From positions 3-64,002 of the forward strand of contig JBAZGA010000001.1 of NCBI GenBank assembly GCA_041653115.1: a DNA stretch of 64,000 nt, written 5' to 3'. Below, piece by piece: positions 430 through 42,504 of this stretch. This stretch comes from Candidatus Omnitrophota bacterium. Lineage in GTDB: Bacteria > Omnitrophota > Gorgyraeia > Gygaellales > Profunditerraquicolaceae. The translations under genes were made by a program, and so were the position numbers. Below the pieces are notes generated by a model, which searched no databases, was not told the origin of the DNA, and worked only from the letters and a program-made list of their open reading frames with translations. Position 1 is the first letter of the stretch, and every line of letters begins with the position of its first letter.

Positions 430-1851
430 GTGTATAAAAGCTTTTTTAATTATATATATCCGTCATTGATCAGGGCGTGTGCCAGTTTATTTATCACCGT
501 TCCGGTTTCCACCTATTACCTTGGGCCGAAAGATTTCGGCATTGTCGGGATTATCACGGTTTTTTCCGCCCTGATTGTTCCGCTTTCTGCAATCGGTACA
601 GGCTGGGTCATCGGAGCCAATTATTATAAACTTAAACAGCAGGAACAGGGCGAATTAATATTCAATACTTTATTGGTAGAGGTGCTTATCAGGTCGCTGT
701 GGATATTTATATTTGCCGGAGCGGGAATATTTTTATTGCCGGTTCTAATAAAATCTTATGAAAAAAGCTTTCTTCTCTATTTTTGGATTTTTTTACTGGC
801 CGAATGGTTAAACGGCGTATGGGAAATAGTTTCTTACACTATCGTCCTGCAGAAAAAGAGCAGAACCTACGCTTTTTTGGAGATAACCCAGATATTATCC
901 GGGGTTATCTTCCTGATTGTTTGCCTGGTTGTTTTGCATTTAAAAACTATTTCACTGGTTCTGGCAAACTTGGGAAATTCTTTAGCCGGGTTTTTATTTT
1001 CGCTGATTTATATCAGAAAGTATATAGTGAGAAAAATTAGAAAAAAATGGATTAATGAAGCGCTGCGTTTGAGCCTGCCGCTGGTGCCGGTTAATCTGAT
1101 GAATATCGTATCTAATTCCATAGACAGGTTTTTTATCGAGCGATGGCTTGGCCTGTCGCAGCTGGGTATCTATACGCATTCCTTAAGCTATAAAAATATG
1201 TTTATGATGTCCACCCGCGCCTTTTCCAAGACTTCTTCGCCCGAGATGCTGGAGGGGATGTCTTGCAACGATAATTCAAAGCTTGACTACACAAGGGCAT
1301 TTCTTAAGAAATGGTTCGGTTTTCTTACCATCGCGGGAACGGCCGTAGCCCTGTTTTCCAAAGAGGCGGTTGCTTTTCTGACGCACGGAAAATTTACCGC
1401 CGCTGCGCCTTTGGTTTCTTTATGGTTTATGATACTTCTGATTTATTCGTTCGGAATACCTTATAATCAATTCCTCTTTATCCATAAGAAAATTAAATTC
1501 GTTCTTGCCTCGGAGGTGATTTTAGGCTTTGTCTCCTGGCTGTTTATCGCCCTGGCGATAAAATTTTTCGGCCTGAAAGGAGCGGTTGTTTCTGTACTTT
1601 TATACTTTTTATTCTTGTACCTGATACGCAAGGGTTACGCGATGCATTTAGGATGTGTTGATTTTGAAGGTATTTATTTTTGGGCTTCTTTAGCTTTAAT
1701 TTATGTATTAATTATTTTGAACATTTCTTCTCTGGCGTTCTATATAAGAATATTAATTTATTTTTTGTTATCAATTACTGTTTTACTGGTTTTTGGTTTA
1801 TTTAATATAAGAAGCTTCGCAAAAAATATTTGGAAATGTTCAAACTGGTAA
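430..1851 (+). CDS. wzx: Polysaccharide / O-unit flippase (Wzx, MOP superfamily)
   Basis: 473 aa multi-TM protein with a GTG start. It carries the 'LSLPLVPVNLMNIVSNSIDRFFIERWLGLSQLGIYTHSLSYKNMF' region characteristic of polysaccharide biosynthesis / Wzx proteins. Confidence 0.6.
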   Translation: MYKSFFNYIYPSLIRACASLFITVPVSTYYLGPKDFGIVGIITVFSALIVPLSAIGTGWVIGANYYKLKQQEQGELIFNTLLVEVLIRSLWIFIFAGAGIFLLPVLIKSYEKSFLLYFWIFLLAEWLNGVWEIVSYTIVLQKKSRTYAFLEITQILSGVIFLIVCLVVLHLKTISLVLANLGNSLAGFLFSLIYIRKYIVRKIRKKWINEALRLSLPLVPVNLMNIVSNSIDRFFIERWLGLSQLGIYTHSLSYKNMFMMSTRAFSKTSSPEMLEGMSCNDNSKLDYTRAFLKKWFGFLTIAGTAVALFSKEAVAFLTHGKFTAAAPLVSLWFMILLIYSFGIPYNQFLFIHKKIKFVLASEVILGFVSWLFIALAIKFFGLKGAVVSVLLYFLFLYLIRKGYAMHLGCVDFEGIYFWASLALIYVLIILNISSLAFYIRILIYFLLSITVLLVFGLFNIRSFAKNIWKCSNW

Positions 1852-2507
1852 GCGATTTTAGAAATATTACAGATAAAAAATTTATGAATTTCTGTTCTAG
1901 CTATATTAAAAAGCGAGACAGAATTGTAGAAATTGGCCCGGGTGATGGCCTATTCGCAGATGAGATTTTAAGAATAATCACTATATCAGCTTATGAATTT
2001 ATTGATATAAAAGATAAAAGAAGTTATAGGAAAGAATTAAATATGCAGATTTGCGATGTTTCTGCTGAAAAAATACCAAAAGAAAACGAATCCGTAGATA
2101 TTATTATTGCTTCACAGGTTTTGGAGCATTTAAAAAATATGGGTCATTTTTTTGATGAATCATGCAGGGTTTTAAAAAACGAAGGTTTATTATTAATCAA
2201 ATTTCCTAACTACTGTAGTTTATTGCAAAAACTAAAGTTCTTTAAAAATGCTGTACCACATAGACTTGGAGGGACTATTAGTAATGGCGGGCATATTAAT
2301 TTTATTTCCTACAAATGGTTATTATTTTTCCTTAGAGAATATTTTCAACCCATTATGATAAAAGGTGATTTATTCGTCGATTTTTTATTTACGCGAAAGT
2401 TTTTTAATTTACTGAAGAAAGATTTATATTTGATAAATAGTAATATAGAAAGCCTTAATTTTTCGTGGAATATAATGATTGCTTTGAGAAAGAATATTAA
2501 AAAATGA
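1830..2507 (+). CDS. Class I SAM-dependent methyltransferase
   Basis: Motif I 'IVEIGPGDGLFADE' and an acidic post-I region 'VDIIIASQVLEHLKN' (Methyltransf_11-like). Confidence 0.55.
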   Translation: MEMFKLVSDFRNITDKKFMNFCSSYIKKRDRIVEIGPGDGLFADEILRIITISAYEFIDIKDKRSYRKELNMQICDVSAEKIPKENESVDIIIASQVLEHLKNMGHFFDESCRVLKNEGLLLIKFPNYCSLLQKLKFFKNAVPHRLGGTISNGGHINFISYKWLLFFLREYFQPIMIKGDLFVDFLFTRKFFNLLKKDLYLINSNIESLNFSWNIMIALRKNIKK

Positions 2508-3301
2508 AGCCTATTATTGTAGCCGAAGCAGCCACTAATCATAACGGAGATATAGTCCTGGCAAAGGAAATGATTTATGCGGCAAAAGAAGCCGGCGCCG
2601 ATTATATCAAGTTCCAGTCCTGGCAGATCAAAAATATGGACCCGAAAAACCCTGCTTATGAAATGATGAAACCGAAGGAATTATCCGATGAGGCGCATCG
2701 TAAATTGATATCGGAATCTGAAAAAGCAGGAATCAAGTTTCTTACGACTTGTTTTGATATCGCAAGGATTGACTTTTTGGCTTCTTTGGGAATGGAGGCA
2801 ATAAAGGTCGCCAGCACAGATGCGGGAAGTATCCGGATGTTAAAAATGCTCAGAGAAAGGTTTAAAGTGATAATTCTTTCCGTAGGCATGGCTTATCCGC
2901 AGGAGGTGGAGGAAGCGGTAGGGATTTTAAAACAGGGTAAATTTTACCTCTTACATTGCGTTGGCCTTTATCCCACCCCCGCGGAGAGGGCTAATTTAGC
3001 CAGGATAGAATGGCTGCGCCGTTTTACCCCAAACGTCGGTTATAGCGATCATACTCTGGGCGTCGAGGCAGCTCAGGTTGCCGTTGCCATGGGCGCAAAA
3101 ATTATTGAGAAACATTTTACCTTAAGAAAAGACCCGAATAATGTTTTTTCACAAATCAGCGTATTACCCGAAGGGCTTAAAGCCATATGCGATTTTGCAA
3201 AAAAATATGAGGCATTGTATGGAGAAAAAGAGGCCAAATTGTCGGAAGAAGAAATAGCAAACCGGAAAAAATTCATCGGAAGATGGGGAGATAATAAGTA
3301 A
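2504..3301 (+). CDS. NeuB-family nonulosonic acid synthase (N-acetylneuraminate synthase-like TIM barrel) lacking the C-terminal SAF domain
   Basis: 'MKPIIVAEAATNHNGDIVLAKEMIYAAKEAGADYIKFQ' is the NeuB/PseI/SpsE N-terminal signature, and 'YSDHTLG...AVAMGAKIIEKHFTL' is conserved. At 265 aa it is shorter than NeuB, and no SAF (antifreeze-like) domain is present before the stop. Confidence 0.7.
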   Translation: MKPIIVAEAATNHNGDIVLAKEMIYAAKEAGADYIKFQSWQIKNMDPKNPAYEMMKPKELSDEAHRKLISESEKAGIKFLTTCFDIARIDFLASLGMEAIKVASTDAGSIRMLKMLRERFKVIILSVGMAYPQEVEEAVGILKQGKFYLLHCVGLYPTPAERANLARIEWLRRFTPNVGYSDHTLGVEAAQVAVAMGAKIIEKHFTLRKDPNNVFSQISVLPEGLKAICDFAKKYEALYGEKEAKLSEEEIANRKKFIGRWGDNK

Positions 3302-4450
3302 ATGAAAAGAAAAATTTGCGTTGTCGTCACAAGCCGGGCAAGTTATGCCAGAGTAAAGTCAGTATTGCGGGAGGTCGCGAATCACCCTGGTTTAGAGCTG
3401 CAGCTGGTTGTTTCTGCTTCTGCTCTTCTGGACAGGTTTGGTAATGCAATTCAGGTGATAGAAAATGACGGTTTTCATCCAGTCGCCCGTGTTTATATCA
3501 TTATTGAAGGAGAAAACCCTACGACGATGGCTAAATCAACCGGTTTGGCAATTGTAGAATTGGCAACAGTATTTGAAAATATTAAGCCGGATATTGTTCT
3601 TACCGTGGCCGACCGCTTCGAGACAATGGCTACCGCCATAGCCGCCTCTTATATGAATATACCTTTAGCCCATATTCAGGGCGGGGAAAAAAGCGGCTCG
3701 ATAGATGAAAGCGTACGTCATGCGGTAACGAAATTGGCGCATTTGCATTTTGCCGCCACAGAAGAAAGCAGAGAAAGAATTATCAGGATGGGCGAAAATC
3801 CCGCTCACGTATTTCTTACCGGTTGTCCCTCGTTGGATATACTATGCGGAACAGATCTTTCGTTAGAATCCGATATACTCAAGAAATACGGCGGCGTTGG
3901 CCCCTTGCTGGATTTTAGTAAACCATACATTGTAATTATGCAGCATCCCGTCACGACAGAGTATCTCTCGGGCAGGGCGCAGGTTAAGGAAACGCTTCAG
4001 GCCGTTTATGAACTGGATTATCAGACAGCCTGGTTATGGCCAAACGTGGATGCGGGCTCCGATGAGGTCTCTAAGGGGATCAGGGCTTTTCGCGAAAATA
4101 AAAATCCTTCCCAGATACATTTTTTTAAAAACTTTCCGCCCGAATCTTATGCCAGACTGATTAATAATGCTTTGTGTCTGGCGGGTAATTCAAGCAGCGG
4201 GATCAGAGAAGCTTCTTTCCTTGGCGTACCGGTAGTGAATATCGGCACCCGCCAGTATGGCAGGGAAAGGGCAGAGAATGTTATCGATGTGGGATATGAT
4301 GCGAATGAGATAAAAAAGGCTATTAGAAAACAGATTGAACATGGGAAATACCCGCAGAGCAATCTTTACGGAGACGGTAAGGCCGGCAAGAGAATCGTAG
4401 CGTTTCTGGCTGATAGTAAAATTAATATCCAGAAAAAATTAGCTTATTAA
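3302..4450 (+). CDS. neuC: UDP-N-acetylglucosamine 2-epimerase, hydrolysing type (NeuC/LegG-like)
   Basis: 'KICVVVTSRASYARVKSVL', 'ADRFETMATAIAASYMNIPLAHIQGGE' and 'FLTGCPSLD' match the NeuC family epimerase_2 fold. Confidence 0.75.
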   Translation: MKRKICVVVTSRASYARVKSVLREVANHPGLELQLVVSASALLDRFGNAIQVIENDGFHPVARVYIIIEGENPTTMAKSTGLAIVELATVFENIKPDIVLTVADRFETMATAIAASYMNIPLAHIQGGEKSGSIDESVRHAVTKLAHLHFAATEESRERIIRMGENPAHVFLTGCPSLDILCGTDLSLESDILKKYGGVGPLLDFSKPYIVIMQHPVTTEYLSGRAQVKETLQAVYELDYQTAWLWPNVDAGSDEVSKGIRAFRENKNPSQIHFFKNFPPESYARLINNALCLAGNSSSGIREASFLGVPVVNIGTRQYGRERAENVIDVGYDANEIKKAIRKQIEHGKYPQSNLYGDGKAGKRIVAFLADSKINIQKKLAY

Positions 4451-4455
4451 ATCTA

Positions 4456-5169
4456 ATGAAAGAGAGAATTTTAGGCATAATTCCTGCGCGCGGCGGCTCA
4501 AAAGGCATTCCGCGCAAGAATATACTCCCTATTTTAGGCAAGCCGCTTATTTGCTATACGATAGAGTCAGCGTTAAAAAGCGGTGTTTTCTTCCGCCTTA
4601 TCTGTTCTACGGACGATAAAGAGATTGCCCGTATCGCAAAAAAGCACGGGGCAGAAGTCCCTTTTTTAAGGCCAAAGAGTTTAGCCAGAGATGATGCTTC
4701 TATGGTTCCTGTTTTGCAGCACGCAGTTAATTTTATAGAAAAACAGGAAGGCAGGAGAGTGGATTTTGTATTCTGCCTGCAACCAACTAATCCTCTGAGG
4801 GCGCCGGAAGACATTATAAGCGGCGTAAGGAAGATAAAAAGGACTGGCGCTGATTCAGTTATTGGCGTGGTAAAGGTAGACAGCGATCATCCGATATTGA
4901 TGAAGAAAATTGTTAATAGCCGTCTTATGCCTTATATATTGGAAGAAAAAGAAGGCACGCGCCGGCAGGACTATAAACCATATGCCTATAAGCGAAGCGG
5001 CTCTGTTTATATCGTCAAAAGAGATATTCTCATGGAAAAGGATTCCCTTTGGGGAGATTATACCAGCCCGCTGATTTTACCAAAGAAACGCAGCATAGGC
5101 ATAGATGACAGGACCGACCTTTTATTAACTGAGCTTATTTTAAAACAAGGCGGGAGGAAGAAGAGTTGA
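4456..5169 (+). CDS. neuA: Acylneuraminate cytidylyltransferase (CMP-nonulosonic acid synthetase, NeuA-like)
   Basis: 'ILGIIPARGGSKGIPRKNI' is the CMP-NeuAc/CMP-Kdo synthetase P-loop, and 'LQPTNPLR' matches the CTP_transf_3 family. Confidence 0.75.
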   Translation: MKERILGIIPARGGSKGIPRKNILPILGKPLICYTIESALKSGVFFRLICSTDDKEIARIAKKHGAEVPFLRPKSLARDDASMVPVLQHAVNFIEKQEGRRVDFVFCLQPTNPLRAPEDIISGVRKIKRTGADSVIGVVKVDSDHPILMKKIVNSRLMPYILEEKEGTRRQDYKPYAYKRSGSVYIVKRDILMEKDSLWGDYTSPLILPKKRSIGIDDRTDLLLTELILKQGGRKKS

Positions 5170-6125
5170 CTCGGATTTTAAATGCCGAACCGCTTGGTTA
5201 TTCAGAAGAAGCAAGGAAAATCATTGTTTCTTTGGGAAAGTTGCATGAAAAGGCATTAAGCCGTAGCGAGCTTATAAGAGTCATAAAAAAATATGATATT
5301 TTAATAACAAGATTCGGTTTTAAGATTGACCGAGACGTTTTGGACGCCGCTACAAGCCTTAAATTTATTGTTACCCCCACTACCGGCCTGGACCATATAG
5401 ATATGGAATACGCGCGGAAAAAGGGTATAGAGGTTATCAGTCTGCAAGGGGAAACCGAATTTTTACGCACTGTGGTTGCGACTGCAGAGCATACCTGGGC
5501 GCTCTTGCTGGCGTTGATCAGGCGGGTCCCCTGGGCATTTCAATCGGTATTAAAAGGTGAATGGAAGAGAGATTCTTTCCGCGGGAATGAGCTGGAGGGA
5601 AAACGATTAGGCATTTTGGGTTTGGGGCGCCTGGGAGAAAAGGTAGCTTTTTATGGCATAGCTTTTGGTATGAAAGTCATGGCTTATGATCCTTACCGTC
5701 AGACCTGGCCGGATGGAATAAGAAGGTGCTTTAACCTGCGCGAGCTGTTATCCCGTTCAGATATTTTTTCCATACATCTTCCGCTGAATAATGAAACGAA
5801 GGGATTGATAGGCAGGAAAGAGTTAAAGACGCTTCCTAAGGGCGCAATAGTTATTAATGCCTCCCGGGGACCGGTATTAGATTCTCTGGCGCTTGCAGGG
5901 CTGTTAAGTTCCGGGCATCTTGGCGGTGCCGCATTGGATGTGCTGGAAGGAGAAGGCAAAGATTTTAAACGACAGCGTCAGAATAGGCTGCTTTTAGCCT
6001 ACGCCAGAAAGAATGAAAACCTGCTGATTACGCCGCATCTGGGGGGAGCGACCAAAGAATCTATGGCTAAGACAGAAATTTTTATAGCAAATAAATTAAA
6101 AAAACACTTGGATTCTTTAAGATGA
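5166..6125 (+). CDS. D-isomer-specific 2-hydroxyacid dehydrogenase (PGDH/glycerate dehydrogenase-like), TTG start
   Basis: NAD-binding 'GILGLGRLGEKVAFYGIAFGMKVMAYDPY' and the catalytic region 'INASRGPVLD...ITPHLGGAT'. Confidence 0.7.
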   Translation: MTRILNAEPLGYSEEARKIIVSLGKLHEKALSRSELIRVIKKYDILITRFGFKIDRDVLDAATSLKFIVTPTTGLDHIDMEYARKKGIEVISLQGETEFLRTVVATAEHTWALLLALIRRVPWAFQSVLKGEWKRDSFRGNELEGKRLGILGLGRLGEKVAFYGIAFGMKVMAYDPYRQTWPDGIRRCFNLRELLSRSDIFSIHLPLNNETKGLIGRKELKTLPKGAIVINASRGPVLDSLALAGLLSSGHLGGAALDVLEGEGKDFKRQRQNRLLLAYARKNENLLITPHLGGATKESMAKTEIFIANKLKKHLDSLR

Positions 6126-7816
6126 AATTTAAAACAGCGGTAAAGAAGAGATTGAATTTAATGATTTTTAGGGACCTTTATTTTTTATACGCCTATCATA
6201 AAAATTTAGTCCAGCAGGTCCAAATATTGAGAGATTACCTAAAATTAAAAAATAATTCCAAATTTTTAAGATATAAAGGTGACTGCAGCTTAAACAGAAA
6301 AGTCTTAGTGGTGAGCTTGACTTCAGATTTTCCTTATCAGATCAAACTGGAGGCGATATTAGCCAAGGCCCTGCAACTTGCCGGGTGCAGCGTTCAGGTT
6401 TTAACTTGGAAGCACTCCTTTTGGTCTAAAAAGTATTTCAGATTATTCGGAATTAATAAATTTATGAATTTCGAAGAATATTTCCATGATAACGGAGCGG
6501 ATAAGCCGGAAGAATCTTTAAGCGGCTTTTTATCAAAAAAAATTAATTTTCGGGAAGTAAAGAACTGGAGGTATAAGGGATGCCGTATAGGACAGCAAGT
6601 CTTAAGTGCGCTGGCTAGGAAGGACTATAGCACCCCGGATTTATCAGACAGTAAAAGTCGCGAGTTGTTTGACCGTTATTTAATGCGGCAGATCAGCGCA
6701 GTTGATGCGGCCGAATGGTTACTTGATAAAGAAAAGCCCGATATTTTGCTTTTTTGCGAAGCCAACGGTTTAATCTACGGAGCTGTATTTGATTTCGCGT
6801 TTAAGAGGGGTTTGAATATCGTGCAATTTGCCCGGGCCTTAAGAGAGGATTCCCTTATATTTAAGAAGTTTAATCCCGAATCATTCGGGTTACATCCTAA
6901 TTCCATATCAAAAAGCACGTTTGAAGAGATAAAAAAAATACCCTGGTCGGAAAAGTATGAGCGTATCCTCTGGGAAGAATTTTCCCTGCGTTATGGAAAA
7001 AAGGAGCACGCCAGCCATAGAGATAAAGGAGGAGAAGTCAATAATGAAGCGGAGCGGATAATAAAACAGTTAGGCCTGGATAAAAATAAAAAAACCGCGG
7101 TTATCTTTCCGCATGTGCTTTGGGATGCCAACCTGTATTACGGCGAGGATATCTTTACGGATTATGAGGAATGGTTTATAGAGACGGTAAAGGCGGCCTG
7201 TAATAATCCAAAAGTAAACTGGATAATTAAGCTTCACCCCGCGAATATATGGAAGAGAAGACGCGAAAAAATAAAAAGCGAACTGAGAGAAGTTACACTC
7301 ATCAAAGAGAAGGTCGGAAATTTGCCTCCTCATGTTTACCTTCTTTACCCCGAAGCAAAGATAAGCACATTTTCTTTATTTAAAATTGCCGATTATGGGA
7401 TTACAGTAAGGGGGACCGTGGGAATGGAGATGCCCTGTTTCGGCGATGTTGTTTTTACTGCGGGAACAGGAAGATATTCCGGCCTGGGTTTTACCAACGA
7501 TTCTGCTTCTAAAGAGGATTATTTAGATAAACTCTCAAGAATCCAGGATTTTTTGCCTTTAACCGAAGAGCAGGTCCTTTTAGCCAAGAAGCACGCTTAT
7601 GCGGTATTTGTTTTACGCCCATGGCGCAAACGCAGTTTTGAAGCAAATTTGGACTATAACCTTAAAGGCATCCATCCATTAGACCATAAATTTAATATTC
7701 TTGTTAATTCATCGAATGAATTATCGGCGGCAGAAGACCTGAATAAATTTTCCAATTGGGTATTGAACTCAAACAGCCCGGATTATTTAGAGCGGATCAA
7801 AGATGAAAATCCTTAA
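6122..7816 (+). CDS. Hypothetical large protein, putative GT-B-like glycosyltransferase (Capsule_synth/KpsS/TagF-like C-terminus)
   Basis: 564 aa with no strong family match by eye. C-terminal 'IADYGITVRGTVGMEMPCFGDVVF' resembles the donor-binding stretch of KpsC/KpsS/TagF-type GT-B enzymes. It shares this motif pattern with the ORFs at 35198 and 44476. Confidence 0.3.
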   Translation: MKFKTAVKKRLNLMIFRDLYFLYAYHKNLVQQVQILRDYLKLKNNSKFLRYKGDCSLNRKVLVVSLTSDFPYQIKLEAILAKALQLAGCSVQVLTWKHSFWSKKYFRLFGINKFMNFEEYFHDNGADKPEESLSGFLSKKINFREVKNWRYKGCRIGQQVLSALARKDYSTPDLSDSKSRELFDRYLMRQISAVDAAEWLLDKEKPDILLFCEANGLIYGAVFDFAFKRGLNIVQFARALREDSLIFKKFNPESFGLHPNSISKSTFEEIKKIPWSEKYERILWEEFSLRYGKKEHASHRDKGGEVNNEAERIIKQLGLDKNKKTAVIFPHVLWDANLYYGEDIFTDYEEWFIETVKAACNNPKVNWIIKLHPANIWKRRREKIKSELREVTLIKEKVGNLPPHVYLLYPEAKISTFSLFKIADYGITVRGTVGMEMPCFGDVVFTAGTGRYSGLGFTNDSASKEDYLDKLSRIQDFLPLTEEQVLLAKKHAYAVFVLRPWRKRSFEANLDYNLKGIHPLDHKFNILVNSSNELSAAEDLNKFSNWVLNSNSPDYLERIKDENP

Positions 7817-8600
7817 TCCAAAAGCATCCTTTGACGGCAGGTACTTATTAAATATCGGGTGTGGCGGCCGTTTTCACATCGAATGGAACAATATTGACTT
7901 CAAACCCGCTCATCCGCATATAATTAAACTAGATATCAAGAAAGGCTTACCCTACGAGACAAAATCCTTTGACGCTGTTTATTCATCACACCTGATGGAG
8001 CATTTAAACGCGGAGGCAGCGAGAAATTTATTATCCGAATCTTCCCGCGTATTGAAACCCAACGGCATATTGAGGTTGGTTATGCCTGACTTGGAATATA
8101 ATGCGAAATTATATCTGGAATCTTTGAACAGAGTAAAGTTAGATAAATCGCCGTTGAATAGAGAACATTACGAATGGGCTGTTTTGAATCTCATAGATCA
8201 GTTTGTGCGCGAAAAAAGCGGCGGCGCAATGAAGAAATTTCTATTACGTCAAGATTTGCAGGATGATGATTTTATTGTATCAACAACCGGCGGCGGAGAA
8301 GTGCAAATAGTTCGTGATACGGGTAAAATTCCCGGTCAACAAAATTCCTTACTCAGGATATGCAGGGGGTTGAAAAATCGCTTTATTTCGAGGAATTTTC
8401 AAAAATCCGGGGAAAAACATAACTGGGCCTACGACAGTTATTCCGCAGGTAAATTATTGCAGGATAGCGGTTTCTCGGATGTGCAAATATTAGATCCTTA
8501 CTCCAGTTCTATACCAAAATTTAATTCTTTTAATCTTGATGTCGATATAAATGGAATAGTCTATAAACCGAATTCTTTATTCGTGGAGTGCAGGAAATGA
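7803..8600 (+). CDS. Class I SAM-dependent methyltransferase
   Basis: 'LLNIGCGGRFHIEWNNIDF' (motif I) and 'VLKPNGILRLVMPD' (motif III). Confidence 0.55.
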   Translation: MKILNPKASFDGRYLLNIGCGGRFHIEWNNIDFKPAHPHIIKLDIKKGLPYETKSFDAVYSSHLMEHLNAEAARNLLSESSRVLKPNGILRLVMPDLEYNAKLYLESLNRVKLDKSPLNREHYEWAVLNLIDQFVREKSGGAMKKFLLRQDLQDDDFIVSTTGGGEVQIVRDTGKIPGQQNSLLRICRGLKNRFISRNFQKSGEKHNWAYDSYSAGKLLQDSGFSDVQILDPYSSSIPKFNSFNLDVDINGIVYKPNSLFVECRK

Positions 8601-9631
8601 AGAAAAGGATGAGAATAAAATACGCCGTTTTTACTGTTTTATTTATTATGATACTTACTGCCCTCTCGCTGGGGTTGATAATTGCGGCGGATATGTACTA
8701 TCATAATAAATTCCTGCAGCACCACGGTCTTAATTATAGAGGATATCGGGGCAGGGTTGTGGGAAGCAAGCGGGGCAATGAAATAAGGATTATTATGCTG
8801 GGCGGGAGCAGCGCCTTTGGTTACGGGGTCCATTATAATGAGGCGCTGCCCTATAGATTGGAAGAGGAGTTACAGAACTATTGCAATTCCAACGGGATAA
8901 ACAAGAAGGTCACGGTTATAAATTTAGGCTATAACAACGAAGGCGCTTACGCGTTTTATTTTAATCTCAAGGATTTTCTTTATCTAAAATACGACTATGT
9001 TATTTTTTATGACGGATATAATGATTTGGGAATAGGCAATGTTACGGTGTACAGGCATTCCAACCCCGTCTTTAGGGCCTTTAAATATATGCCGATCCTT
9101 CCGCTTATAATAGAAGAAAAGAAGATGGTCTTGCAGAGTGGCGGAAGATTGGAGGACATGTATCTGGGTAAAAAGATAGTCTTTACTCCCAGCCCCAAAG
9201 AAAAAATACAGATAAATATTTTGAACAGCGCTTTAAAAGTATACAATACTTTTGATAATTTTGCGAATAGGGTAAGCAGGGTATCCGATAAGGAATTTGA
9301 TATGGGGCAGATAAAAAAAGATAAATGGGCATGGTATAAGTATTATATGAAGAAAGCCATAGATTTTGCCTTAGGGTGCGATAAGAAGGCTGTTGTAATT
9401 ACTCAGCCATACATATCGGATGAGCACAGAGAGCAGCAGGGCTCGTTAAAGAAGACGATATTCAATACCTATAAAGACAATAAAAATTTCCTCTACCTTA
9501 ATTTAGGGGAAGCAATATCCCTGAAGGAAGGATTATTGACTTTCGACGGTATGCATTTAAATGCCGACGGTTGTAAAAAGATGGCTGCGATTATCGCGCA
9601 AAAAATCGAAGGATACGTAATAGGAAAATAA
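8588..9631 (+). CDS. SGNH/GDSL-type hydrolase (putative sugar O-acetyl esterase/acyltransferase), N-terminal TM anchor
   Basis: An N-terminal TM helix, block I 'IIMLGGSSAFGYGV' (GDS-like) and block V 'FDGMHLNADGCKKMAAII' (DxxH). Confidence 0.45.
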   Translation: MQEMKKRMRIKYAVFTVLFIMILTALSLGLIIAADMYYHNKFLQHHGLNYRGYRGRVVGSKRGNEIRIIMLGGSSAFGYGVHYNEALPYRLEEELQNYCNSNGINKKVTVINLGYNNEGAYAFYFNLKDFLYLKYDYVIFYDGYNDLGIGNVTVYRHSNPVFRAFKYMPILPLIIEEKKMVLQSGGRLEDMYLGKKIVFTPSPKEKIQINILNSALKVYNTFDNFANRVSRVSDKEFDMGQIKKDKWAWYKYYMKKAIDFALGCDKKAVVITQPYISDEHREQQGSLKKTIFNTYKDNKNFLYLNLGEAISLKEGLLTFDGMHLNADGCKKMAAIIAQKIEGYVIGK

Positions 9632-9646
9632 AGAAGGCGGGAGTTA

Positions 9647-10969
9647 ATGAGAGAGGGTTCCGACGTCGTATTAATCAGGGCTAAGGGTTATTTTTCTTTT
9701 GAGAAGGCGCCGCCTATCGGGATTACTTGTATAGCGTCATACATCTCAGATAAATACAGCGTAAAAATTTTTGACCGGGAGCGAAACCCAAACGAGGATT
9801 ACGTAGATTTTATAAAGAATAAAATAGTTCCTCTTAACCCCAGGATAATCGGAATAAGCGCGGTAAGCGCCCAGATAAAAGACGCCTTGATGATAGGCAG
9901 ATTAGCAAGCCAGTATTTACCAAAAGCAAAAATAGTTTTCGGGGGGGTGCATTTTTCTTCGGTCCCTGAAGACGGCTTAAAATCCGGCCATGCCGTTATC
10001 GTGGGGGAAGGTGAAGTTGTGTTTAAGGAGTTATGCGGCTTACCCGAAGAAAGGATAAAGGGCGTATTTTACGGCAGACCTTTGGAAAATTTGGACGAGA
10101 TACCTATTCCTGCTGACGAATTCATCCTTGCTTCGCAAGAGCCCAAGGATGGCGAATATTTATTTTTATCTTCCAGGGGATGCCCGTTTAATTGCACTTA
10201 TTGCCTGTCCAGGGACAGCAAGCAGAGACAGATACGTCTTCACTCCATAGACTACGTTGTTTCCTATCTGCAAAAAGTCCGCCAGCTTTATCCCGATATT
10301 AAAAAGGTCTGGTTCGTAGACGATGTTTTTATCGTAAATGAAGAACGGGTAATTGAATTCTGCGATAAGAGCAGCAAGGCCAATTTAAATTTTGAATATT
10401 CATTTTTTGCGCACGCCAATTATGTCAAGAAGATAGCGTTATTTAAAAAGATGGTTCGGCACAATTTTAACTGTGTCTATATAGGTATAGAATCGGGAGA
10501 CAACGGGATTCTTAAGAAAATAAAGAAAAACACCACGGTAGAAGTCATAGAGAAGGCTGTAAGGATTTTAAAAAAATCCGGATTATACTGCGTAGCCACT
10601 TATATGATAGGAAATATTTCGGAAACAAAGAAGACGGTACTCGATACCATAAACTTCTCCAGAAGGCTGGGGATACCGGCAATTTTTAATTTTGCCGAGC
10701 CCTTTCCGGGGACTGAGTTTTTCAATGAGGTCGAAAATGAGCCGCAGGTGGGTAAGCGTATCACTGAGGACTTCCGCTCAATAAATGAGATAACCTTTGT
10801 GCCAAGGGATTTGGACGAGAAAACCATGCTGGAATTAAGAAATGAGGCAGAAAAATACAAGCCTTATAAGTATCTAATGTCTTACTATCTTAAACACCCG
10901 CGCAAGGGTTTAGTAAAGATAAAAAATAGGCTGAATAGGCTCTTAGTTAAAGCGGGGCGACAGAGATGA
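9647..10969 (+). CDS. B12-binding-domain radical SAM protein (class B radical SAM methyltransferase-like)
   Basis: N-terminal cobalamin-binding-like Rossmann region ('VVLIRAKGYFSF...IGITCIASYI'). A radical SAM cluster motif follows: 'SSRGCPFNCTYCLS' (CxxxCxxC). Confidence 0.65.
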   Translation: MREGSDVVLIRAKGYFSFEKAPPIGITCIASYISDKYSVKIFDRERNPNEDYVDFIKNKIVPLNPRIIGISAVSAQIKDALMIGRLASQYLPKAKIVFGGVHFSSVPEDGLKSGHAVIVGEGEVVFKELCGLPEERIKGVFYGRPLENLDEIPIPADEFILASQEPKDGEYLFLSSRGCPFNCTYCLSRDSKQRQIRLHSIDYVVSYLQKVRQLYPDIKKVWFVDDVFIVNEERVIEFCDKSSKANLNFEYSFFAHANYVKKIALFKKMVRHNFNCVYIGIESGDNGILKKIKKNTTVEVIEKAVRILKKSGLYCVATYMIGNISETKKTVLDTINFSRRLGIPAIFNFAEPFPGTEFFNEVENEPQVGKRITEDFRSINEITFVPRDLDEKTMLELRNEAEKYKPYKYLMSYYLKHPRKGLVKIKNRLNRLLVKAGRQR

Positions 10970-11709
10970 AACTTTATTGTTATTACACTAAATCTCACGA
11001 GTCTTTATTAAATACTTTTTTTCTTCCGTCGTTAAAAGATGATTATAAAGTAATTTTAAAAAAGGGCGAGCAAAAATGTTCAAAGGGAAGCTATAAGGAA
11101 GAAGGCTGGCTTGAAACAACAATGGGCAAAGTCGACTTTATTATTGCCGCCATACTCGATAATCGGAACAAGTTATTTCTATTTTCCGATCCGGACATCC
11201 AGTTTTTTAGAGAAACGGAAAAGTATATACTAAAAATTGCAAAAGACCAGGATATCGTCGCTCAACGCAATGACCCGTCGGGAAAGCTGTGCAGCGGATT
11301 TTTTGCCTGTCGGGCAAATGAGAAGACCCTGAATTTATGGCGGGATGTACGTAAATTTATCTGCAACAAGGAAGGCGATGATCAAGACGGACTAAATTAC
11401 TTTTTAAAATTATCGATTTTAACTTCGCCGCACCATTATTTTCGAAAAAGAATGAGTATTATTTTATCTAAGCGCGGCCTTAATTATCACAAAATTAATT
11501 GGCGATATTTACCGTCTTTTTTCTTCGGCGGCGGGATGTTAAGCGGCAGGCGCTGGGAGCCGGGCATGAGGCTCAAGATACCTAAGAATATTGCGATGCA
11601 TCATGCCAATTGGACCTTCGGAATCGAAAATAAAATTACGCAGCTGAACCTTGTTAGAAATATCTGTACCGGAAGAAAATTCGTTATAAACAGTGCAAAT
11701 AATTTATAA
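10966..11709 (+). CDS. Hypothetical protein, possible nucleotide-diphospho-sugar transferase
   Basis: 247 aa with a DxD-like 'FSDPDIQF' and no TM segments. The assignment is weak. Confidence 0.25.
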   Translation: MKLYCYYTKSHESLLNTFFLPSLKDDYKVILKKGEQKCSKGSYKEEGWLETTMGKVDFIIAAILDNRNKLFLFSDPDIQFFRETEKYILKIAKDQDIVAQRNDPSGKLCSGFFACRANEKTLNLWRDVRKFICNKEGDDQDGLNYFLKLSILTSPHHYFRKRMSIILSKRGLNYHKINWRYLPSFFFGGGMLSGRRWEPGMRLKIPKNIAMHHANWTFGIENKITQLNLVRNICTGRKFVINSANNL

Positions 11710-11714
11710 TCGCC

Positions 11715-12572
11715 ATGATTTCAAGTAATAATACTAAGGTCTCGATTATCACGGTTTGCCTTAATTCCGAGAAATACATAGAGAAAACGATTAAAAGCGT
11801 ATTATCCCAGACGTATCCCAATATCGAATATGTGATAATAGACGGCGGTTCTGCGGACCGGACACTGGAAATAGTTGAAAGATATAAGAACCGGCTCGGC
11901 TACTTTGCGAGCGGGCCTGACAAGGGCATTTATGACGCCCAGAATAAAGGAATTAGCCTCTCTGAAGGGCAAATTATTTCTATCCTTAACTCCGATGACT
12001 ATTTTTACTCAAATGATGCAGTCGAAAAGGCCGTTGAATTTTTTGCAAGGAATAAAGCGATAGATTTCGTATACGGCAATATGCTCTGCGTTAATGGCGA
12101 TGGTTCGCAGGCGTGTTTAAAACATTATCCGCGCCGCTTGAAAAAGAGGCATTTTTTAAGAGATACCCTGGGTCATTCCGCGACGTTTTTTCGCAGGGAG
12201 GCTTTCCAGAGGGCGGGTGATTACAATACCAGCTATAGGATTTCCGCTGATTACGAATGGTACCTGCGGGCGCTCTATAAAAAAGGAATGCGCGCTGCAC
12301 ATTGTAAGCGGATATTTTCCGTATTTAATATGGGAGGTCTGTCGGGTAGGGGTGAGTTATTTATTAGCGAGATAGATTCAATTAAAAAAATTTACTTTAC
12401 TCCTTCGGAAAGAGTTATAGGCGCTTGTTTTAACTTTATCCTGTGCGGAGATATTTTCCGCTTTATGGCAAGGTTGCTTATGCGGAACAACAGTTACGCT
12501 TTTTTTCGCGCAAAATACAGAAGGCAGGTCTATTTAAAATATGCAAAATATCTTTCAACGGGAGGCATTTAA
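11715..12572 (+). CDS. Family 2 glycosyltransferase
   Basis: 'VSIITVCLNSEKYIEKTIKSVLSQTYPNIEYVIIDGGSADRT' is the canonical GT2 N-terminus, and 'NSDDYF' is DxD-like. Confidence 0.7.
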   Translation: MISSNNTKVSIITVCLNSEKYIEKTIKSVLSQTYPNIEYVIIDGGSADRTLEIVERYKNRLGYFASGPDKGIYDAQNKGISLSEGQIISILNSDDYFYSNDAVEKAVEFFARNKAIDFVYGNMLCVNGDGSQACLKHYPRRLKKRHFLRDTLGHSATFFRREAFQRAGDYNTSYRISADYEWYLRALYKKGMRAAHCKRIFSVFNMGGLSGRGELFISEIDSIKKIYFTPSERVIGACFNFILCGDIFRFMARLLMRNNSYAFFRAKYRRQVYLKYAKYLSTGGI

Positions 12573-12575
12573 AGA

Positions 12576-14102
12576 GTGCGGTTGCCGGTAGTTTTTTTTA
12601 TTTTATTCTTACTCGTCATTAACGCTGTCGCTCATTTCCTGCCTTTTGAGCGTTCATCCCTTGCCCCGGATGATTATTATTATCTTCGCTGGATGAAAGA
12701 AGTTAACCCAACGCACTTGTCGGATTATTTTAAAATTTCTCCGGACCGGCCGATAGCGCATATGCTTATCAACGGACTTTTTAAAGTCGTTCAAGATAAT
12801 TCGCAATTAAGCCTGATTTATATTTTTCTAGTCAGCTCGTTTAATCTACTATTGGTTTTTTTCATATTCAAGGCGCTATTTAATAACCTTTCTTTGGCTT
12901 TTATCGGTTCTCTTATCTTCTGCCTGATGCCGAATATGCTGGAAGTTTATCATACTTTTACCTATGCTTTTCCCGCTACGCACATCGGCGTTTACCTGGC
13001 CAGTTTTCTTTTTTATCTTTATTTTAATAAGAAAAAGAAAATAATCTATCTTGTTTTCTCGCTAGCGACATATACGGCAGGCCTGCTTGCCTATGAGGTA
13101 GGATTTTTTCTGCCTGTAATCTTTTTGGCTTACAATATTTTATACCTAAAGGAAAGCCCTAAAAAACACCTGCTTTATTTTACGATACCCGCATTCTTTT
13201 ATGCCTTATTGCGGCTGAGCAGCGCCCTTAGTTTTTCCGGCGTCTCTACTGCCGCGATTCCCCGGCAGATAGCCTTTTCGTTGTCGCCTTTCATCGACCT
13301 TTTTCACCAGTATTTGGGCAGGTATATGATGCGGAATATCCTTTACGGAATTTATAAATTTTTTGATATGGATTTAAGTTTACGCTTATTTATTATATTC
13401 ATGGATATTATTATTGTGGCAAGCTTATTTTTTCTCTTGAAGAAGGTTAATTTAGAAAAAGTTAGTAAGCGCCTGCTGATATTTGCTTTTTGGGTATTTT
13501 CCGCGTTTCTTCTGCCTATTGCGTTATACGGCAGCGGGGTAGGCGGGAGGCATTTGGTATTGCCGTCAATAGGTTTTGTTATTTTCCTGATCTGGCTCTT
13601 GGAAAGAACAGGCAGATACTGGCGGCTTACCTTTTTGGCTTTTGTTTCCCTGGCATTGATAATCTGCCAGGGGAATGCCTGGATACAGGTCATCGCCTGC
13701 AGGATAAACGGCGCCATATATGAAACAATGAAAGAAAAAAAGAGTCAGTTGCTTGCCGCGGGAAACATTGTAATTGATACCAAAAGCTTTGCCGATAATA
13801 TTGATTTCACCTGGAAGATAACAGAACATAATGTCCTTAATACTTATTATGGGGCTCAGGCATTTGAAGAGTGGATGTTTGAAAATATGGCTAAGTTAAT
13901 TACCGGCGATAATAATAAAGCGGTATATGCCGCAATTGGCAGCGTGATATCCGAAGACGGCTGGCTTAAATTTGAGATTGCCGGAGAACGGGAATACCGC
14001 CGCATCCTTAAGAAGACAGTCATTCTGCCCGCTCAAGGCTCTGTGATAATTGATTTTAAGACAGTTTATAATAAGGGTTTTAAAAACGGATTAAGGATAT
14101 AG
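12576..14102 (+). CDS. Polytopic membrane protein (putative GT-C-like glycosyltransferase or polymerase), GTG start
   Basis: 508 aa with at least 10 predicted TM helices in the first ~370 aa, followed by a soluble C-terminal domain. This architecture is typical of GT-C / PMT / ArnT-like enzymes. Confidence 0.35.
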   Translation: MRLPVVFFILFLLVINAVAHFLPFERSSLAPDDYYYLRWMKEVNPTHLSDYFKISPDRPIAHMLINGLFKVVQDNSQLSLIYIFLVSSFNLLLVFFIFKALFNNLSLAFIGSLIFCLMPNMLEVYHTFTYAFPATHIGVYLASFLFYLYFNKKKKIIYLVFSLATYTAGLLAYEVGFFLPVIFLAYNILYLKESPKKHLLYFTIPAFFYALLRLSSALSFSGVSTAAIPRQIAFSLSPFIDLFHQYLGRYMMRNILYGIYKFFDMDLSLRLFIIFMDIIIVASLFFLLKKVNLEKVSKRLLIFAFWVFSAFLLPIALYGSGVGGRHLVLPSIGFVIFLIWLLERTGRYWRLTFLAFVSLALIICQGNAWIQVIACRINGAIYETMKEKKSQLLAAGNIVIDTKSFADNIDFTWKITEHNVLNTYYGAQAFEEWMFENMAKLITGDNNKAVYAAIGSVISEDGWLKFEIAGEREYRRILKKTVILPAQGSVIIDFKTVYNKGFKNGLRI

Positions 14103-14111
14103 GGGAGCTCT

Positions 14112-15374
14112 ATGTATAAAGAAATTACAAAATGCAGGATTTGCGGAAATACGGAACTGCTGCCCATCCTTAACCTTGGCAGGCAGGCATTGACCGGAAT
14201 CTTTCCTAAAGATAAAACCCAGGAGATCACCGAAGGGCCGCTGGAGCTGGTCAAATGCAATGACGAGAATAACGCAAATTGCGGACTTGTGCAACTTAAA
14301 CATTCCTATAGCCTGCCCGAATTGTATGGGGATAACTACGGTTATAGGTCCGGGCTTAATAAATCCATGATTAAGCATTTGCATAATAAAGTAAGAGAAA
14401 TAACGAAATTGGTAGAGTTGTCCTCCGGAGACCTGGTTATTGATATCGGCAGCAACGACAGCACGCTCCTGCAGGCCTATCCCGATAATAAAGGCCTTAT
14501 TTTAGCGGGAGTAGACCCCACCGGAATAAAATTCCGGGAATATTATCCCGCGCATATCCACCTTATTTCTGAATTTTTTTCTGCCAAGGTGATAAGGAAT
14601 AAGTTTGGCCGTAAAAAAGCGAAAATAATTACTTCTATCGCCATGTTTTATGATTTAGACTCGCCGGTTGACTTTATGCGGGAAATATACGATATCCTTG
14701 ACGAAAAAGGAGTCTGGGTCTTTGAGCAAAGTTATTTGCCGAGCATGCTTGAGGTAAACGCATATGACACGGTCTGTCATGAACACCTTGAATATTATGC
14801 CTTTAAACAGATAAAGTGGATGGCTGAAAAAGTCGGCTTTGAAATACTCGATGTCAAGATAAACGCGGTTAACGGAGGAAGTTTTTCTGTAGCGGTTGCC
14901 AAAAGAAATTCCGCTTATCGGCCTAACCGCGCTTTTATCGATACCTTGTTAACGGAGGAGAAGAAAAAAGGTTTTAATACCTCGGCGCCTTATAAAGATT
15001 TTTGCCGGAGCGTATTTAAGCACAGGGATGAACTTTCGGCTTTCCTGGAAGAGATGAAAAATAAAGGAAAGATGATATTAGGATACGGCGCTTCGACGAA
15101 GGGCAACGTGATTCTTCAATTTTGTCAAATTAAGGCCGATTCGCTTCCTTTCATAGCCGAGGTAAATAAGGATAAATTCGGCGCTTTTACTCCCGGTACC
15201 TTGATCCCCATAGTATCTGAAGAAGAGGCACGGAAGATGAATCCCGACTATTTTATGGTTTTGCCCTGGCACTTTAAAGAAGGCATAATTAAGAAAGAAA
15301 GAGGCTATTTAGACTCAGGGGGGAAATTATTTTTTCCTCTCCCCGCGTTGGAAGTTTTTGAAGAGGGCGGATAA
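14112..15374 (+). CDS. SAM-dependent C-methyltransferase of the TylCIII/NDP-hexose C3-methyltransferase type
   Basis: N-terminal Zn-ribbon 'CRICGNTEL...C...C', a methyltransferase core 'LVIDIGSNDSTLL' and a conserved C-terminal Methyltransf_14-like domain. Confidence 0.55.
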   Translation: MYKEITKCRICGNTELLPILNLGRQALTGIFPKDKTQEITEGPLELVKCNDENNANCGLVQLKHSYSLPELYGDNYGYRSGLNKSMIKHLHNKVREITKLVELSSGDLVIDIGSNDSTLLQAYPDNKGLILAGVDPTGIKFREYYPAHIHLISEFFSAKVIRNKFGRKKAKIITSIAMFYDLDSPVDFMREIYDILDEKGVWVFEQSYLPSMLEVNAYDTVCHEHLEYYAFKQIKWMAEKVGFEILDVKINAVNGGSFSVAVAKRNSAYRPNRAFIDTLLTEEKKKGFNTSAPYKDFCRSVFKHRDELSAFLEEMKNKGKMILGYGASTKGNVILQFCQIKADSLPFIAEVNKDKFGAFTPGTLIPIVSEEEARKMNPDYFMVLPWHFKEGIIKKERGYLDSGGKLFFPLPALEVFEEGG

Positions 15375-16095
15375 CGTGCCGGATGAAAAAAGTTTAATTT
15401 TTATACCTACTTATAACGAAAAGGAGAATGCCGAGAAGTTATATTTTAAGATAGCTTCTTTAAATATCCCTTTTGATATTCTTTTTATCGATGATAACTC
15501 TCCGGACGGAACGGGAATATCTTTGGATAACCTGGCGAAAAGGTTCAATAATGTCAAAGTCATCCACCGCCCCGGTAAAATGGGTATCGGCAGCGCGCAT
15601 AAGCAAGGAATAAGATACGCCTACCAGAATAGTTACGGGATATTAATCACTATGGATTGCGATTTTACCCATTCTCCGGAATATATTCCCAGGTTCATCG
15701 GCTATTCGCAAGATTACGATGTAGTGCTGGGTTCGCGTTTTCTTTCTTCAGCCAGCCTGGTTGGCTGGAGCAGGTGGAGAAAATTTTTAACACTCGCGGG
15801 GCATACCCTAACCAGGATTTTGCTGGGATTTTCTTATGATGCCTCGGGCGCTTACCGGCTCTATAACCTTAAAAAGATTCCCCGGGAGGCCTTTGATTCC
15901 GTAATTTCGGAAGGATACTCGTTTTTCTTTGAAAGCCTGTATCTACTAAATAAAAGGAAGCTAAATATAAAAGAATTCTCGATTATGCTTCCGGCTCGCA
16001 GCAGCGGCCATTCCAAGATGGACTTGAAAGCGGCGATAAAAGGCGTAAGTTATCTTTTTTGGCTCTGGCTAAAGAATATTTTTAGGGGACGTTGA
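15358..16095 (+). CDS. GT2 polyprenol-phosphate glycosyltransferase (dolichyl-phosphate mannose synthase-like); real start probably GTG at 15376
   Basis: 'LIFIPTYNEKENAEKLYFKI...FIDDNSPDGTG' matches the Dpm1/GtrB family. Confidence 0.7.
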   Translation: MKRADNVPDEKSLIFIPTYNEKENAEKLYFKIASLNIPFDILFIDDNSPDGTGISLDNLAKRFNNVKVIHRPGKMGIGSAHKQGIRYAYQNSYGILITMDCDFTHSPEYIPRFIGYSQDYDVVLGSRFLSSASLVGWSRWRKFLTLAGHTLTRILLGFSYDASGAYRLYNLKKIPREAFDSVISEGYSFFFESLYLLNKRKLNIKEFSIMLPARSSGHSKMDLKAAIKGVSYLFWLWLKNIFRGR

Positions 16096-27637: not shown

Positions 27638-27640
27638 AAA

Positions 27641-29692: not shown

Positions 29693-29693
29693 T

Positions 29694-30707: not shown

Positions 30708-30716
30708 AGAATATTT

Positions 30717-31436: not shown

Positions 31437-31445
31437 GAGGTAGAA

Positions 31446-32120: not shown

Positions 32121-32134
32121 AAGGTTCAAAGCAA

Positions 32135-33199: not shown

Positions 33200-33204
33200 T
33201 TATT

Positions 33205-42482: not shown

Positions 42483-42504
42483 GTATTTATAAGAATTAAA
42501 TAAA

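Follow-up and report, generated by a model that had tools for sequence, protein, structure and literature searches.

In this study, we analyzed a 64,000-nucleotide stretch of DNA (the window) from Candidatus Omnitrophota (assembly GCA_041653115.1, contig JBAZGA010000001.1, positions 3-64,002 of the forward strand), in which positions 2504-6125 encode a short sialic acid synthase (NeuB) without the C-terminal SAF domain, a NeuC-type epimerase, a NeuA-type synthetase, and a D-2-hydroxyacid dehydrogenase (2HADH). On balance, these genes probably form the core of a self-contained, coupled operon for a cytidine monophosphate (CMP)-activated nonulosonic acid (NulO) of the sialic acid type, running parallel to the pseudaminic acid (Pse) genes of the same window. 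In the proposed route, a hydrolyzing NeuC resembling the human epimerase GNE would convert UDP-N-acetylglucosamine (UDP-GlcNAc) to free N-acetylmannosamine (ManNAc). The 265-amino-acid NeuB would join ManNAc and phosphoenolpyruvate (PEP) into N-acetylneuraminic acid (Neu5Ac), or a derivative of it, on a metal-dependent TIM barrel that a short tail would cap minimally in place of the SAF domain. NeuA would then activate the product with CTP to the CMP-sugar, and a 564-residue protein with a GT-B glycosyltransferase fold, encoded downstream, would probably transfer the nonulosonate of the CMP-sugar to an acceptor. The four open reading frames (ORFs) had been predicted from the nucleotide sequence alone, and all of them lie on the plus strand exactly where they had been placed; the observations of that original prediction are confirmed, while its interpretation is borne out only in part.

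We assigned genes to families one by one, using Pfam and NCBIfam models with their cut-offs. The short NeuB matches PF03102 (E value, 7e-61) over profile positions 1-240 of 241 and carries no other domain. It covers positions 2-274 of the 329-position TIGR03569 (NeuB_NnaB) model, and the SAF part is therefore missing. Partly for this reason, its score against the NeuB equivalog model is 226 bits, below the cut-off of 400; it also stays below the cut-off of the PseI model (177 versus 340 bits). The translation contains the motifs on which the original prediction relied (ATNHNGD, KFQSW, YSDHTL, and IEKHFT), and the neuB stop codon (TAA, 3299-3301) is indeed flush against the neuC start codon (ATG, 3302). 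The protein ends at residue 265 after a linker-like tail, so that the SAF domain is truly absent. We built a profile hidden Markov model (HMM) of the SAF domain from five full-length NeuB proteins and ran it on all six frames of the window and of 41 related loci. In the window, its sole match is the SAF domain of PseI (32099-33196), and there is no stand-alone SAF ORF; near the short neuB genes of the related loci, it found nothing save separate full-length paralogs. A frameshift, which had been considered around positions 3290-3300, or a split SAF domain is thus ruled out, since no frame restores the domain.

The same architecture is found well beyond this genome. At least 120 of the closest relatives (45-100% identity) are 247-309 residues long, nearly all of them 264-290, with PF03102 as their only domain. 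One protein from a Candidatus Omnitrophota metagenome-assembled genome (MAG) is 100% identical to the short NeuB of the window, and the genes of the operon have 88-91% identical copies in another sample. In an alignment of 32 close relatives, invariant residues occur in the barrel and also in the tail (E250, R254, G259, G262, and N264), with the stop directly behind it. The tail corresponds to the last 16 residues, with the consensus [D/E]EE..R..[F/Y][I/V]G[R/K]WG[D/N]N, or approximately EE..R..FIGRWGDN[KR], and it is conserved in all six ORFs checked in genome loci. We scanned one genome per GTDB species and obtained 588 stretches that encode relatives; in the best 45 or so of these loci, the ORF stops 0-5 residues past the aligned tail. 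These loci belong to Omnitrophota, Planctomycetota, Spirochaetales, Nitrospirae, Desulfo-lineages, and Bdellovibrionales, as well as to Saccharibacteria and Paceibacteria of the candidate phyla radiation (CPR), Methanocella, Altiarchaeota, and Nanoarchaeota. The short NeuB is a natural architecture and not an artefact.

The AlphaFold2 model of the short NeuB (predicted local distance difference test score [pLDDT], 94.6) shows a confident barrel, and its tail consists of a helix (residues 248-257) followed by coil. Template modeling (TM) scores range from 0.86 to 0.91 across NeuB, PseI, and 6NCS; the best solved match is 6NCS (TM, 0.91; 35% identity), ahead of the Neisseria meningitidis enzyme (NmNeuB) and PseI. 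The tail is homologous to the interdomain linker and the first SAF residues of SAF-containing relatives (EE..R..F.RR...); hence, the chain of the short NeuB stops shortly after W261, its counterpart of NmNeuB F288. We infer that the conserved tail acts as a minimal cap where the SAF domain would otherwise lie.

The original prediction implied that a NeuB without the SAF domain is novel, but this form is already documented. About 30% of 13,941 UniProt NulO synthases lack the SAF domain according to a 2021 survey (PMC8208679), which describes them as mostly environmental, with a Trp at the F288 position, and leaves their function open. The short NeuB shares the SAF-less TIM barrel, the environmental distribution, and the Trp with this "ENV, no SAF" group, and the barrel also with 6NCS, a "sialic acid synthetase" from Leptospira borgpetersenii. 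Neither the survey nor the 6NCS entry says what these synthases do, which operons they belong to, or what the tail is for, and a literature search for a characterized SAF-less NeuB or for 6NCS returned only the survey and a modeling citation. Relatives from Leptospira (L060, L062, and L078; 38-40% identity) run about 50 residues past the tail position, and these residues look unlike SAF-containing relatives by eye, no SAF model having been run there. With such a distinct C-terminal extension, the family would have several C-terminal solutions.

We read the residue equivalents of the active site from a phmmer alignment of the short NeuB to NmNeuB (1XUU). The short NeuB preserves the ligands of Mn, the Lys and Ser residues that bind PEP, and all three acidic residues (NmNeuB/short NeuB: E25/E8, K53/K36, Q55/Q38, K129/K101, S132/S104, E134/D106, S154/S126, H181/H151, Y186/Y156, S213/S181, H215/H183, E234/E202, and H236/H204). 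R314 is gone along with the SAF domain, while the aromatic residue equivalent to F288 is retained. Two further positions deviate. Namely, the window protein has Gly154 at the position of NmNeuB N184, where 30 of 31 aligned relatives have Ser and the remaining one has Thr. At the position of D247, it shares Phe215 with its nearest subclade (N[VI]FS), while 6NCS and the bulk of the family have Asp. Work by Gunawan and colleagues from 2005 is said to assign D247 of NmNeuB a role in sugar binding.

The epimerase points to a sialic acid type of route. NeuC scores 417 bits against TIGR03568 (cut-off, 236) and just 95 bits against the nonhydrolyzing WecB model. Among solved structures, human GNE matches best, through its epimerase domain (4ZHT; 271 bits), and LegG from Acinetobacter baumannii, a legionaminic acid (Leg) enzyme, gives 226 bits. 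D104, R105, D135, R139, H124, and S297-298 of NeuC correspond to D112, R113, D143, R147, H132, and S301-302 of GNE; among 43 members of the NeuC clade, the two catalytic Asp residues D104 and D135, R105 (the Arg typical of hydrolyzing enzymes), and the phosphate site S297-S298 are invariant or nearly so, and mutagenesis has shown that GNE D112, R113, and D143 matter. Q126 stands in place of GNE E134, where Gln is a tolerated natural variant (PMC4793188). NeuC therefore retains the catalytic residues of a hydrolyzing epimerase, the lack of which had been named as a possible flaw of the assignment. In a neighbor-joining tree, the NeuC proteins encoded next to short NeuBs group into a single clade whose sister is GNE; A. 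baumannii LegG branches outside it, as does an Omnitrophota LegG paralog. Unlike GNE, NeuC has no fused ManNAc kinase, and there is no kinase or phosphatase in the operon; thus, free ManNAc, rather than ManNAc 6-phosphate, is expected.

NeuA matches PF02348 (E value, 4e-26), with a PARGGSK-type loop that reads IIPARGGSKGIPRKN, and its best PDB matches are CMP-Neu5Ac synthetases (9FTB, 6IFD, 1QWJ, and 1EYR; 78-128 bits). Of 49 loci of the short-NeuB clade, 40 encode NeuC, almost always adjoining the short NeuB, and 31 encode NeuA. These neighborhoods have no recurrent kinase or phosphatase, and we rejected the ManNAc 6-phosphate route on this basis. Within the 64-kb window, there is no LegB-type dehydratase, LegC aminotransferase, or LegH/PglD acetyltransferase, and the sole dehydratase/aminotransferase pair is PseB/PseC, both above their cut-offs. 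Given a GNE-like NeuC and no Leg precursor genes in the window, a Neu5Ac-type route would be the most economical reading, with UDP-GlcNAc favored over UDP- or GDP-diacetylbacillosamine (diNAcBac) as the likely substrate of NeuC. The original prediction had left the choice between a sialic and a legionaminic acid route to such comparisons, and the evidence favors the ManNAc route. The NeuC-NeuB-NeuA pathways of Escherichia coli K1 and N. meningitidis (SiaA/SiaC/SiaB) draw on these three enzyme families, arranged in the same logical sequence, and NmNeuB has its catalytic and metal residues in common with the short NeuB; the window differs from them in a synthase lacking the SAF domain and R314, in a NeuC nearer to animal GNE than to other solved homologs, and in the addition of a dehydrogenase, methyltransferases, and the GT-B protein, which resembles KpsC.

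The dehydrogenase resembles phosphoglycerate dehydrogenase (PGDH). Its best model is SerA (243 bits; cut-off, 454), the other equivalog scores being likewise below their cut-offs, and its closest PDB matches are 3-phosphoglycerate dehydrogenases. It shares both Rossmann domains and the catalytic Arg, Glu, and His with SerA (1WWK, 1YGY, and human PHGDH); it differs in an insertion after the catalytic Glu and in forming a family of its own inside NulO operons. This family is tight (at least 120 proteins of about 320 residues, with 56-68% identity). Five residues do not vary among 27 of its members: the catalytic R234, E263, and H291, plus R49 and R135. The latter two align with the arginines of the VRS and WKR/WER motifs of PGDH. 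In PGDH, these arginines bind the distal anion of phosphoglycerate; beyond them, the conserved residues gave no pointer to a substrate.

We fetched homologs of the dehydrogenase without reference to NeuB and looked up five of them (56-60% identical). All five are inside NeuB/NeuC/NeuA operons, and we therefore rejected the idea of a stray housekeeping SerA that lies here by chance. Four of these operons carry a NeuB with the SAF domain, while the retrieved stretch of the fifth, L089, includes no NeuB. Where the DNA can be compared, the SAF-type NeuBs are about 30% identical to the short NeuB; the NeuC and NeuA proteins of the looked-up operons are 56-59% and 37-52% identical to those of the window. 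The 2HADH gene is between or next to neuB, neuC, and neuA in 15 of 15 called loci (the window and 14 further genome or metagenome loci), and it is present in 10 of the 49 short-clade loci. The enzyme recurs in such operons across many phyla; where present, it is a conserved part of the operon core, and it is an accessory but real member of the pathway in a subset of these operons. Most likely, the enzyme tailors the sugar or supplies a hydroxy acid substituent, together with the flanking methyltransferases. One candidate substrate is a small 2-oxo acid, whose reduction would yield a D-hydroxy acid substituent, in line with the glyceroyl or lactyl-type group that the original prediction suggested; the other is the nonulosonate itself or its CMP form. 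In the library searched, we found no literature linking a 2-hydroxyacid or phosphoglycerate dehydrogenase to neuABC or nonulosonate clusters.

Could the short NeuB have acquired a different substrate, as the original prediction suggested? It might combine PEP with mannose (yielding Kdn), with ManNAc 6-phosphate as in the animal-type route, or with another aldose, and the product would not be Neu5Ac. We consider this unlikely. In its favor, the short NeuB has no R314, through which the SAF domain holds the N-acetyl group; it has Phe at the equivalent of D247 (in its subclade) and Gly at the equivalent of N184 (in the window); its beta2-alpha2 loop is shorter than that of NmNeuB; and the dehydrogenase of the operon is unexplained. 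Moreover, a Leptospira SAF-less synthase is fused to a phosphatase-like domain, for which a phosphorylated substrate has been proposed (PMC3438082). Yet the abutting GNE-like, hydrolyzing NeuC in about 40 of 49 loci implies free ManNAc, and the neighborhoods contain no recurrent kinase or phosphatase. Furthermore, operons with orthologous NeuC, NeuA, and 2HADH have SAF-containing NeuBs in the same slot, and both architectures appear to serve one pathway. The two are thus interchangeable in otherwise orthologous operons, and the missing SAF domain is probably no sign of a new substrate.

A second alternative, which we regard as improbable, is that the module is a legionaminic acid branch (LegI/LegG/LegF) fed with UDP- or GDP-diNAcBac by genes outside the window. 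TIGR03568 fails to separate NeuC from LegG, NeuC does match A. baumannii LegG (226 bits), and at L001/L008, in another Omnitrophota MAG (approximately 1900-16800), a triad of short NeuB, NeuC, and NeuA directly precedes a Leg gene set. However, that Leg set is full: it includes a separate SAF-type LegI as well as a LegG of its own, and the tree places this LegG as a distant paralog. In addition, NeuC is nearer to GNE than to LegG by both score and tree, LegB-, LegC-, and PglD-type genes are missing from the window, and dehydratase and aminotransferase genes are lacking in the vicinity of many short-clade loci. The L001/L008 locus has one cytidylyltransferase for both branches, and its triad is preceded by an FkbH-like protein, an acyl carrier protein, a MaoC dehydratase, a B12-radical-SAM protein, and a polysaccharide deacetylase, which make up a glyceryl-ACP-type acylation set. 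Finally, a truncated, decaying, or misassembled short NeuB beside a chance SerA paralog is effectively refuted by conservation: its low equivalog score, the G154 that replaces the family's Ser, and the metagenomic origin of the assembly could be read that way, but architecture, stop position, and tail persist across phyla, near-identical copies of the operon genes occur in another sample, the catalytic and metal residues are intact in a confidently modeled protein, and the dehydrogenase homologs looked up are all in NulO operons.

Several points nevertheless weigh against a sialic acid type of pathway. The SAF domain, which contributes R314 to the active site of the partner, is essential in canonical NeuB (cited in PMC11339185, PMC8208679, and PMC7591256), and the tail of the short form is only a putative substitute for it. 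Either Gly154 or Phe215 could alter or weaken the binding of the sugar or of PEP. The NeuC tree is a quick neighbor-joining tree with few characterized references, and the best NCBIfam model for NeuA is PseF (168 bits), below its cut-off of 206. For the whole short-NeuB clade, the identity of the sugar is deduced from sequence comparisons and is therefore best described as putative. Gene identities, intact catalytic residues, architecture, and synteny are observed directly, whereas the sugar, the function of the tail, the transferase, and the dehydrogenase step are putative. Lastly, a plain Neu5Ac pathway needs no dehydrogenase, and the true product may differ from Neu5Ac.

The gene downstream of the dehydrogenase encodes the 564-residue protein. 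Against PF05159 (Capsule_synth), it scores 17.2 bits, below the cut-off of 20, while several members of its family carry a precomputed PF05159 assignment. The family has more than 1300 homologs of about 550-600 residues, which are called "hypothetical protein" wherever they are named. A profile of the family matched no PDB sequence, even at E values up to 10. Its AlphaFold2 model (pLDDT, 89) has a GT-B fold, with the best target-normalized TM score (about 0.5) to KpsC beta-Kdo transferases. The fold is shared with the KpsC/KpsS beta-Kdo transferases (PF05159; GT107/GT99-type), but the 564-residue protein is about 200 residues longer than these enzymes and remains under the Pfam cut-off. The C-terminal domain contains an invariant His-Pro (H372-P373), as do GT-B enzymes that use CMP-sugars. 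All three homologs that we chose independently are immediate neighbors of NeuB/NeuC/NeuA, in loci that also encode methyltransferases and AsnB-like amidotransferases, and further homologs are present in L088, L090, and L019. Members flank neuB, neuC, and neuA in Omnitrophota, Deltaproteobacteria, Gaiellaceae, and Chloroflexota. We thus propose, with moderate confidence, that the protein is a candidate CMP-nonulosonate transferase.

Methyltransferases are frequent companions of these genes. In 16 of the 49 short-clade loci, the gene just before the short neuB encodes one, although it belongs to a different methyltransferase cluster from that of the window, and one follows the homolog of the 564-residue protein in L091, L092, and L093. 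The commonest noncore neighbor in the short-clade loci (23 of 49) is a protein of about 450-500 residues, such as that at 2812-4188 of L030. It has a weak match to TagF/TagB (Glyphos_transf, PF04464) and is itself a candidate CMP-dependent nonulosonate transferase. Sulfotransferases, NodU/CmcH-type carbamoyltransferases, and GDSL/SGNH proteins are encoded at L088, L091, L094, and the P0149 locus (NeuB/NeuC/NeuA/2HADH), which hints at heavily decorated glycans there. In the window, the product of 8588-9631 is weakly GDSL-like.

The module is part of a glycan locus of more than 55 kb that surrounds it, with essentially every gene on the plus strand. This orientation holds for almost every gene between 25 and about 57600, the cumulative GC skew climbs steadily, and the G+C content is 33-45%. 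Beyond approximately 57.6 kb, housekeeping genes follow (pgk at 57688), with a G+C content of about 46%. An Rfam scan of the whole window gave no match. Within the module, genes overlap by 4-14 nucleotides or are 5 nucleotides apart, apart from the flush junction of neuB and neuC, and the set is therefore translationally coupled; this coupling spans at least the region between the two methyltransferase genes listed in Table 1.

Table 1. Genes of the coupled NeuB-2HADH module and its immediate flanks in the window
Feature	Coordinates	Strand	Length and family evidence
Class-I S-adenosylmethionine (SAM)-dependent methyltransferase	1830-2507	+	225 aa; Methyltransf_23/11 matches; stop overlaps neuB start
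Short NeuB, TIM barrel plus 16-residue tail, without SAF	2504-3301	+	265 aa; PF03102 only
Hydrolyzing UDP-GlcNAc 2-epimerase NeuC, GNE-like	3302-4450	+	382 aa; TIGR03568
CMP-nonulosonate synthetase (NeuA/LegF/PseF family)	4456-5169	+	237 aa; PF02348 (CTP_transf_3)
PGDH-like D-2-hydroxyacid dehydrogenase (2HADH)	5166-6125	+	319 aa; PF00389 (2-Hacid_dh), PF02826 (2-Hacid_dh_C)
Unnamed-family GT-B protein, candidate CMP-nonulosonate transferase	6122-7816	+	564 aa; weak PF05159
Second SAM-dependent methyltransferase, possible tailoring enzyme	7803-8600	+	Methyltransf_11/25; overlaps stop of 564-aa gene

About 20 kb downstream of the module, the Pse block (24629-34254) contains, in this order, PseB, PseC, an aldo-keto reductase, a PseF fusion, PseG, a WbqC-family protein, a PIG-L/LmbE-type deacetylase, PseI, and a radical-SAM protein. 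PseB (24629), PseC (25606), PseG (29694), and PseI (32099) are above their NCBIfam cut-offs. In the fusion (27641-29692; 683 residues), a PseF-type CTP_transf_3 domain is joined to a class-III aminotransferase resembling glutamate-1-semialdehyde (GSA) aminomutase. The Pse pathway uses no NeuC-type enzyme; since the Pse set is complete on its own and needs no NeuC, the genes at 2504-6125 constitute an independent second nonulosonate module. This agrees with the two different nonulosonic acids that the original prediction considered: synthase, epimerase, and CMP-synthetase are all encoded within the module, and the Pse block relies on a separate PseI and PseF domain. Modules of this kind are repeatedly paired with a second, canonical NulO pathway, with Pse in the window and Leg at L001/L008, and about 10 of the 49 short-clade loci have extra SAF-type NeuBs. 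There is no PseH-type GNAT inside the Pse block, which, together with its unusual gene set, suggests a Pse derivative with a nonacetyl N-acyl group.

An AsnB-like glutamine amidotransferase of 631 residues (21985-23880) is 16 kb from the module, and related proteins (29-32% identity) recur in the NulO loci L089-L093; it resembles the PseA-type enzymes linked to acetamidino formation. Four radical-SAM proteins are encoded in the glycan locus (9647-10969, 33205-34254, and 41547-43647). Their types are B12-binding, SPASM, one whose best match is a radical SAM/SPASM-type maturase, and one with Radical_SAM and 4Fe-4S domains.

The SAF-less synthase belongs to a recorded class with a solved relative, and current understanding is not overturned by its presence here. 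What appears to be undescribed is the recurrent partnership with an embedded PGDH-like dehydrogenase and a KpsC-like family of 564-residue proteins. A broader reading combines three claims: that a GNE-like NeuC, a NeuB of either architecture, NeuA, and the PGDH-like dehydrogenase, with methyltransferases, the AsnB-like amidotransferase, and the 564-residue protein as frequent extras, constitute an undescribed pathway; that the 564-residue proteins are a new family of CMP-nonulosonate transferases; and that the tail functionally replaces an essential SAF domain. Taken jointly, these claims are possible but rather doubtful. If they were true, a redox-tailored or hydroxy-acid-substituted sialic acid would be widespread among uncultivated bacteria, CPR, and archaea.

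Sialic acid-type sugars are usually treated as devices of pathogen mimicry. Here, a compact Neu-type operon occurs in free-living and ultra-small lineages, including Omnitrophota, CPR, Planctomycetota, methanogens, and Altiarchaeota, often beside Pse or Leg genes. Overall, the module raises three testable matters: how a synthase may function without the SAF domain that the Neisseria enzyme needs, which chemistry a PGDH-like dehydrogenase may add to a nonulosonate pathway, and whether an unnamed GT-B family may be the missing transferase for these sugars.

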